Shown here: in pieces, positions 950 to 1,081 of the stretch | How the letters are laid out: each line of letters opens with the position of its first letter | Numbering within the stretch: position 1 is the first letter of the stretch | From: a virus | Taxonomy: Duplodnaviria; Heunggongvirae; Uroviricota; Caudoviricetes | Length of the DNA stretch: 4,010 nucleotides | Virus record (IMG/VR): IMGVR_UViG_2671180637_000010 | Location: 1 to 4,010 of that record | Reading direction: 5' to 3' (one strand) | Position numbers and translations under genes: made by a program | The notes under the pieces: model-generated | Told to the model about the DNA's origin: nothing | The model's input: the letters and a program-made list of their open reading frames with translations, nothing else | Database searches by the model: none

Positions 950-1081
950 TTATTCTCCTTTGAGCAACTTCATCGCTTCATCAATACGTGATTGTGTCCC
1001 TGCGTTTGGCTCCACTTCTTGAATTCGGCGAGCGTCCTCAAGGAGTTTCGCAATCATTTCTTTAAGCGCTTCGTTATTCAT
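950..1081 (-). CDS. Hypothetical 43-aa protein in the pL leader (MNNEALKEMIAKLLEDARRIQEVEPNAGTQSRIDEAMKLLKGE), stop 1 nt before the N start
   Basis: This is the inner part of track ORF 950..1171. The ATG at 1081..1079 has AGGAGA 7 nt upstream; the track's upstream ATG at 1171 lies in the untranslated leader next to nutL and has no ribosome-binding site. Its final codons AAA GGA GAA TAA supply the AAGGAG Shine-Dalgarno for N. Confidence 0.4.
   Translation of the reverse strand: MNNEALKEMIAKLLEDARRIQEVEPNAGTQSRIDEAMKLLKGE

Follow-up and report, generated by a model that had tools for sequence, protein, structure and literature searches.

A 43-codon gene inserted between the Shine-Dalgarno sequence and the start codon of gene N in a lambda-like prophage

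A listing of open reading frames, a Pfam scan and comparison with phages identify the window, by which is meant the whole stretch of 4,010 bases that was analysed, as the immunity region of a prophage resembling lambda (Table 1). The repressor gene cI, the promoter pL and a 43-codon reading frame, here called orf43, all lie on the minus strand, with orf43 at the promoter end of the early-left operon, on the repressor strand and downstream of the repressor. Alignment with pL and OL of lambda, together with the lambda annotation, puts the start of the pL transcript at about 1255. The closest phage overall is ev099 (99.3% identity over 80% of the window), from which orf43 is absent. The protein encoded between cI and pL matches Pfam NYN (E 6.8e-9) and phrog_5783 (E 1.5e-119), and gives weak PADLOC matches (HEC-09, NYN nuclease); its gene is also present in ev099. 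In other prophages that carry orf43 this same slot holds RexAB, an SDH-family protease, a P63C protein, BstA_C, or a toxin module of HigB type, and it looks like a hotspot for prophage exclusion or defence cargo. The genes downstream of N resemble those of Sf6 and SfI; the three small reading frames there gave no NCBIfam match, while at two other orf43-carrying loci (L011 and L017) Pfam Ral is found in the counterpart of the 59-residue frame. A scan of the entire window against Rfam gave no match at E values up to 1.

Table 1 Features of the 4,010-base window, with positions counted from its first base.
Feature	Position	Strand	Description
cro	3314-3514	+	
cII		+	same strand as cro
cI repressor gene	2500-3213	-	
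NYN-domain gene	1515-2372	-	285 aa; in the slot of lambda rexA/rexB, between cI and pL
pL promoter	1262-1290	-	TTGACA-17-GATACT, 10/12 matches in promoter scan; overlaps OL1/OL2 operators
nutL	1192-1222	-	boxA TGCTCTTAA, 1214-1222; boxB hairpin GCCCTGAAGAAGGGC, 1192-1206
Long leader hairpin	1101-1175	-	16-bp stem AGCUUUGAGUAGCGCG / CGCGUUACUCAAAGCU; SfI/HK542-type variant
orf43 ribosome-binding site	1082-1093	-	AGGAGAATGACC; Shine-Dalgarno sequence serving N in lambda, SfI and Sf6 (alignment; junction table of 18 loci)
orf43	950-1081 (including stop)	-	43 aa; ATG 1081-1079, TAA 952-950; identical to RefSeq WP_001701111.1; member of PHROG 32391
New Shine-Dalgarno sequence for N	953-961	-	AAAGGAGAA; codons AAA GGA GAA (Lys-Gly-Glu), the last three sense codons of orf43
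Antitermination gene N	616-948	-	110 aa; Sf6/SfI-type C-terminus; Pfam N36, E 1.6e-26; phrog_271; homologue annotation
Small ORF downstream of N	470-607	-	45 aa, Cys/Trp-rich; resembles Sf6 gene 36
Small ORF downstream of N	329-415	-	28 aa, extremely acidic, MEEEFEEFEEHPQDVMEQYQDYPYDYDY; SfI counterpart annotated as similar to lambdap47
Small ORF downstream of N	166-345	-	59 aa; SfI counterpart annotated as restriction alleviation protein

The translation of orf43 is MNNEALKEMIAKLLEDARRIQEVEPNAGTQSRIDEAMKLLKGE, and on the minus strand the region reads ...AAAGCTAACTGACAGGAGAATGACC ATG AAT AAC ... CTC AAA GGA GAA TAA A ATG GAT GCA.... The original prediction of a 43-residue frame between nutL and N holds in all its coordinates and sequence details: AGGAGA (1093-1088) stands 7 nt upstream of the orf43 ATG, a second AAGGAG that could serve N lies at 960-955, within codons 41-43, and base 949 alone separates the TAA from the ATG of N (948-946). 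The program that listed the reading frames extends this one to a TTG at 1171 (73 aa), but the sole start with a properly spaced Shine-Dalgarno sequence is the ATG at 1081. An in-frame ATG at 1087 was considered as a start and rejected, as it abuts the Shine-Dalgarno sequence and is lost in the junction variants AATAACC, AAGGACC and AATCCAGACC. Since the window contains 57 reading frames of at least 25 residues, a run of 43 codons is in itself not beyond chance, and the case for orf43 as a gene is one of conservation rather than length.

The boundaries of the insertion were defined by aligning the window with lambda, SfI, Sf6 and three E. coli prophages, which also establishes that, as the prediction had supposed, the region is not identical to the lambda leader. 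Lambda, SfI and Sf6, which lack orf43, read CAGGAGAAT-CCAG-ATGGATGCA, with no cassette between the Shine-Dalgarno sequence and ATGGATG; the window and the other genomes with the frame read CAGGAGAAT-GACC-[ATG...TAA]-A-ATGGATGCA (in the window, GACC-ATGAAT...AAAGGAGAATAAA-ATGGATG). The cassette is thus a clean one of 130-odd nt, lying exactly between the Shine-Dalgarno sequence of N, AGGAGAAT, and the start codon of N in ATGGATG. The octamer AGGAGAAT is found at both of its ends, as the old Shine-Dalgarno sequence and again inside the last codons of orf43, and the AGGAGA that initiates N in lambda now initiates orf43, in agreement with what had been proposed. One locus (L014, at about 3985-4003, to be compared with 1082-1095 of the window) keeps the lambda CCAG before ACC-ATG, reading AGGAGAATCCAGACC-ATG, and this looks like an unmodified junction. 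Among the other 5' junctions in the junction table the majority read AGGAGAATGACC-ATG and the rest have AATGGCC, AATAACC or AAGGACC; it seems that the 5' junction was trimmed after insertion, the spacing from Shine-Dalgarno sequence to AUG being 3 nt shorter in most copies than in L014.

The other end of the cassette is more uniform. At all of the 17 loci where orf43 precedes N, the gap from its stop codon to the N ATG is 1-2 nt and the peptide ends in K-G-E (encoded by AAAGGAGAA or AAAGGGGAA). These loci differ from one another in immunity region, cargo genes and leader, and both the K-G-E end and the short gap are kept across three lineages with dS of about 0.5 (that is, with roughly half of the synonymous sites differing). 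A copy in E. coli EC12 that does not precede N ends instead in K-A-E (AAAGCAGAA; AAA GCA GAA), a single base abolishing the Shine-Dalgarno sequence. Because this copy, with no N downstream, has GCA rather than GGA, the presence of a Shine-Dalgarno sequence for N at the 3' end of orf43 depends on context, and the end of the gene has been shaped by its role as the ribosome-binding site of N. The number of such loci should be read with the fact that most of the copies encode an identical protein, so that it reflects recent spread rather than independent retention.

In the window, the arrangement TAA-A-ATG has the stop-start proximity of a coupled gene pair, and the prediction had described orf43 as tightly coupled to N. 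The spacing of 1-2 nt is in keeping with this, but the ribosome-binding site of N is as accessible as that of orf43: partition-function folding gives mean unpaired probabilities of 0.61 for the new site of N, 0.64 for that of orf43 and 0.55 for the N site of lambda, and the range from 0.55 to 0.64 covers orf43, N, and the N genes of both lambda and SfI. As RNA folding predicts no strong sequestration of either ribosome-binding site, coupling would not be structurally enforced, and according to these models N could also initiate independently of orf43 translation. Translational coupling between the two genes is suggested solely by the 1-2 nt spacing.

The leader upstream of orf43 is of the type that precedes N in lambda, with boxA and boxB followed by a long stem between nutL and the Shine-Dalgarno sequence. 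The boxB element is identical in alignment to that of lambda nutL (annotated in lambda as Nutl) and folds as a 5-bp hairpin. The stem is perfect over its 16 bp, with 1175-1160 pairing to 1116-1101 (z = -5.0 relative to shuffled sequences), and sits where the structured N-leader stem of lambda does. In lambda it is through this structured leader that N and the Nus factors, bound at nutL, repress translation of N (PMC5725501). From about 1086 to 1180 the leader of the window is 98.9% identical to those of SfI, HK542, HK244, mEp332, ev243 and phi458, all of which lack orf43, and orf43 for its part is preceded, at one locus or another, by five or more different leader variants. The stretch from about 1100 to 1180 had been noted to differ from lambda, and so it does, but it cannot be counted as part of the cassette when phages without the frame have nearly the same sequence; the divergent leader is an independent mosaic module, separate from the cassette.

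Between boxB and the Shine-Dalgarno sequence the N leader is hypervariable in its apical part, whose length ranges from a few tens of nucleotides to about 230; there are at least six variants among the window and loci L001, L002, L007, L023, L024 and L026. In all the leader variants boxB is kept, and in all those tested except E94 so is the base of the long stem, GGCUUUGG/CCAAAGCU, followed directly by AACUGACAGGAG; the same stem base occurs in lambda, Sf6, 503440, L024 and L026 although their apical sequences differ. In the RNAfold structures, where the variants differ in the sequence of the upper stem, the changes compensate one another. A stem kept in this way fits a structural role that has been conserved, of which RNase III processing would be an example. 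Cleavage of the N-leader stem of lambda by RNase III has reportedly been demonstrated, and the enzyme is said to modulate N-mediated translational repression.

A consensus scan of the minus strand for promoters and terminators returned only pL and a terminator-like site at 153-138; nothing flanks 950-1081, and the stretch from pL to N is free of sites resembling either a promoter or a terminator. orf43 lies in the same transcription unit as N and therefore within the promoter-proximal part of the pL transcript. The idea put forward earlier, that a small cassette in the pL leader would be made together with N, is supported: its boundaries have been aligned, and no such site separates orf43 from either pL or N.

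What chiefly distinguishes orf43 from the many other short frames in the window is its conservation. It matches PHROG 32391, a family of 43 residues, over its full length (residues 1-43 of 43, E 3.1e-34), while its first 40 or so residues match the longer PHROGs 30817, 12693 and 2982 (E 1e-8 to 1e-10); the identical sequence WP_001701111.1, named by PGAP as a hypothetical protein, is found in E. coli TW14425, 503440 and E94. Comparison with the three closest diverged relatives gives ratios of synonymous to nonsynonymous differences of 9:4 (P0001), 9:7 (P0002) and 14.5:6.5 (P0004), corresponding to dN/dS values of 0.10, 0.16 and 0.07, a range confined to comparisons in which dS is unsaturated. 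For a more distant copy, from Pectobacterium phage Amona, the counts are 19 synonymous against 15 nonsynonymous differences, and the proteins are identical at 75% of their residues. Such values point to strong purifying selection over the whole length of the peptide.

A profile search of 5.8 billion proteins brought the family to 217 clusters at 90% identity, and an exhaustive hmmsearch of 1.84 billion representatives to 109 clusters at 50% identity (39-220 aa), with phages of Enterobacterales and of Aeromonas as the sources. Its motif is LLEDAxRxQxxEPNAGTxxRI, within a consensus of about 40 residues (LKHVIALLLEDAKRLQQLEPNAGTEARI), and L6, K7, I10, A11, L13, L14, E15, D16, R19, Q21, E24, P25, N26, A27, G28, T29, R32, I33 and A36 are nearly invariant. 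Since Serratia, Pectobacterium, Klebsiella, Pantoea and Providencia all have versions of 42-47 residues, and since the C-terminal extensions of the longer relatives are mutually unrelated, the 43-residue form is a whole domain and not a fragment. The search for the peptide in other phages, on which the prediction had made its own survival depend, thus finds it conserved at the protein level, and everything in these comparisons indicates that orf43 is a real gene.

An AlphaFold2 model calculated from the family alignment is a helical hairpin (pLDDT 92) in which the invariant EPN turn connects a helix at 3-23 to one at 27-42. Because several polar or charged residues (K7, E15, D16, R19, Q21, E24 and R32) are at least 90% conserved across genera, from phages of Escherichia to those of Aeromonas, it may perhaps be that the hairpin binds a conserved partner, by analogy with other small early phage proteins. 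Searches for relatives of known function gave little. Pfam returned only sub-threshold noise for the peptide (SBDS_domain_II, E 0.11; DUF5806, E 0.15), NCBIfam and PADLOC gave no match, and a sequence profile search of the PDB gave nothing even at E values up to 10. In a fold search the PDB yielded only generic helical hairpins, the best of them LUZ24 gp4 (6yse), and a relationship to that protein was rejected (Foldseek E 1.4; hhalign probability 0.2%); in BFVD only evident members of the family scored. The extensions of ten longer relatives (133-220 aa) gave two sub-threshold Pfam matches (Striatin and DUF1366), and a literature search found no paper on the family or on its placement inside an N leader.

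As to occurrence, orf43 was found in six of 5426 complete E. coli genomes, in five of them in front of N, the lambda-type N leader itself being present in 861 of the 5426. Its DNA was absent from all records in a collection of 50,697 phages; the exact peptide occurs in 528 blocks of an assembly collection, and lay directly upstream of N in 10 of the 10 places inspected. The inspected prophages with this arrangement differ from one another in the type of repressor and cro, in the cargo between cI and pL (RexAB, NYN, SDH protease or P63C) and in the genes downstream.

Within the wider family, members are mostly found on the repressor strand among the first few genes of the early-left operon. Those of the window and of lineages P0001 and P0002 precede a lambda-type N. 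In EC12 (L038, 2064-2628) a copy that is 90.6% identical in DNA, with a two-residue insertion (MNNDNEALK...), lies 44 nt after the gene for a 127-aa N_peptide-type antiterminator, which shows that the cassette can shift to either flank of N genes that are unrelated to one another. A Pantoea-type metagenome contig has a member 2 nt after an N_peptide gene, in a Pantoea genome (L041) and in Stx phages the member is one or two genes after N, and in Cronobacter phiES15, Aeromonas pAEv1818 and a Providencia contig it is the first gene after the repressor. In Rac-like prophages (L032, 2763-3135; L034, 2844-3216) it follows by 1 nt a DUF1391 (YdaF/YdfA-like) gene. The exceptions to early-left placement are a P2-like context, after gpA (a Phage_GPA replication gene), and Pectobacterium phages, where the member is near a terminase gene. 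Since relatives occur after other types of N or with no adjoining N at all, the protein is not specific to the N leader.

The slot beside the DUF1391 gene merits a separate remark. In K-12 the position after ydfA of Qin (L037, 2009-2294) holds ydfB, a gene of 42 codons unrelated to orf43, and in Rac an equally unrelated 44-codon gene, ydaG, precedes ydaF; it seems that one small gene can stand in for another at this point of the operon. The shared slot gave rise to the idea that the family might be that of YdaG (Rac) or YdfB (Qin), which was dropped when the translations, compared by reading and not by a search, were found to share no motif.

The explanation preferred here, and probably the correct one, is that orf43 is a mobile accessory gene belonging to an early-left family of stand-alone helical hairpins of about 40 residues, that it was inserted before N, and that its product acts in trans; the product is most probably an accessory protein of the immediate-early phase, translated together with N. 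The gene would have recombined into the few bases between the Shine-Dalgarno sequence and the start codon of N, thereby inheriting the initiation region of N, with its AGGAGA, long leader stem and upstream nutL, and presumably also whatever control acts there, which in lambda is RNase III processing and N/Nus-dependent translational repression. The codons AAA GGA GAA TAA would in turn give N a new Shine-Dalgarno sequence, with the AUG of N 1 nt later, so that N might be translated by ribosomes that have just finished orf43, by ribosomes initiating anew, or by both. In lambda the N-independent, immediate-early segment of the pL transcript encodes N only; here the orf43 protein would be made from that part of the transcript as well, and would probably act in trans, binding or inhibiting some conserved cellular or phage partner as soon as infection or induction begins.

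Several other readings have to be weighed against this one. It might be that what matters is the act of translating orf43 and not its product, the frame being a regulatory uORF that sets the level or timing of N, for instance by feeding ribosomes to the N AUG, or by providing a new, open Shine-Dalgarno sequence that frees N from nutL/RNase III control. The junction with N is what one would expect on such a view: the stop-start gap of 1-2 nt and the Shine-Dalgarno sequence made by the last codons are found wherever orf43 precedes N, across lineages with dS of about 0.5, the G of codon 42 that makes this sequence is missing in the EC12 copy, and the leader is known to control translation of N (PMC5725501). 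A pure uORF, however, would hardly need strong purifying selection on its amino acids along the whole length. Nor is the peptide conserved in its regulatory context only, as a leader peptide would be: identity is 53-90% outside the N leader (dN/dS 0.07-0.16), and 53-75% in the Pectobacterium phages, the P2-like context, the Rac-like prophages and Providencia, where the member is not beside N. For these reasons the uORF reading is thought improbable as a complete account, although the two roles are mutually compatible. That orf43 is a mere chance frame, or a decaying remnant of its relatives of 92-119 aa left as non-functional filler in the leader, might be thought from its shortness, from the presence in the window of 57 frames of at least 25 aa, and from the way the longer relatives (PHROGs 30817, 12693 and 2982) match it by their N-terminal 40 or so residues only. 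This idea is effectively refuted: dN/dS lies well under 1, forms of 42-47 aa turn up repeatedly in several genera, the stop codon is conserved in position, the model is confident and its hairpin complete, and the attachment of unrelated C-terminal extensions marks the unit of about 40 residues as a conserved domain.

A different possibility is that the peptide is a specific partner of N, acting with or on the antitermination machinery, e.g. by stabilising N against proteolysis or by modulating the use of Nus factors. This would explain why family members so often adjoin N-type genes, lying directly before a lambda-type N, closely after N_peptide-type antiterminators (by 44 nt in EC12 and 2 nt in the Pantoea-type contig), or one or two genes after N in Pantoea L041 and the Stx phages. 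Yet no N-family gene was called near the members that follow the Phage_GPA gene or DUF1391 (in the Rac-like prophages), nor near those of phiES15, pAEv1818, the Providencia contig and the Pectobacterium phages; the adjacent N genes belong to two unrelated families; and adjacency may reflect only that both kinds of gene are placed close to the promoter of the pL operon. On balance a dedicated partnership with N is considered distinctly improbable. Returning to the mobile accessory gene, one may go further and imagine that the EPNAGT hairpins form an undescribed class of immediate-early effectors, made before N-dependent transcription begins, which neutralise some conserved host factor, for instance a defence sensor, a protease or a nucleoid-associated silencer, or which tune Nus/N, and that their insertion rewires the nutL/RNase III autoregulation of N; this is speculative and, as it stands, rather unlikely.

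It remains to compare the locus with systems already known. Databases already list the gene itself, both as a hypothetical protein and as a PHROG of unknown function: PHROG 32391/WP_001701111.1 and PHROGs 30817, 12693 and 2982 match it in sequence, and these entries carry no function, name or Pfam family. What is new is the description of its placement, of the fit of its ends to the initiation region of N, and of the extent of its family. LUZ24 gp4 (PDB 6yse) resembles it in size (about 45 aa), in being a helical hairpin (TM 0.73/0.69) and in promoter-proximal early expression, but with a fold E value of 1.4 and a profile probability of 0.2% this is a likeness of kind and not of family. LUZ24 gp4, like CIII and Kil of lambda, is a small early phage protein that inhibits host proteins. 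Neither Lambda_CIII (PF02061) nor Lambda_Kil (PF06301) of Pfam matches orf43 at E values up to 1, and in the prophages that carry orf43, CIII and Kil are encoded further downstream by genes of their own. The promoter end of an early-left operon is where phages tend to put functions for host takeover and counter-defence, and a conserved, unnamed family found near that end in many enterobacterial prophages is a reasonable candidate for functional screening, though nothing shows that it has any unusual activity.

As an insertion, orf43 has much in common with the morons and other mosaic insertions of lambdoid phages: it is polymorphic for presence or absence, its boundaries are sharp and fall at gene junctions, and it occurs in several unrelated backgrounds. 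Classical morons carry a promoter and a terminator of their own, whereas for orf43 none was detected, and the gene is embedded in the existing translation-initiation region of the operon. Compared with the pL-nutL-N leader of lambda, the window conserves pL, the OL operators, boxA and boxB, the base of the stem, the AGGAGAAT Shine-Dalgarno sequence and the start of the N coding sequence; it differs in that this Shine-Dalgarno sequence and leader now drive orf43, in that the new Shine-Dalgarno sequence of N lies inside orf43, in its apical stem, which is the SfI/HK542 variant, and in the distance from the pL start (+1) to the AUG of N, about 307 nt as against about 222 nt in lambda. All this amounts to ordinary lambdoid mosaicism, which has here produced a neat natural variation on a classic regulatory leader and not a new kind of system. 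The lambda leader is a textbook case of translational control by the elongation complex and RNase III, and a natural variant in which the initiation region of N has been captured by another gene offers a ready-made test of how far the control exerted by the leader reaches, and of whether N needs it.
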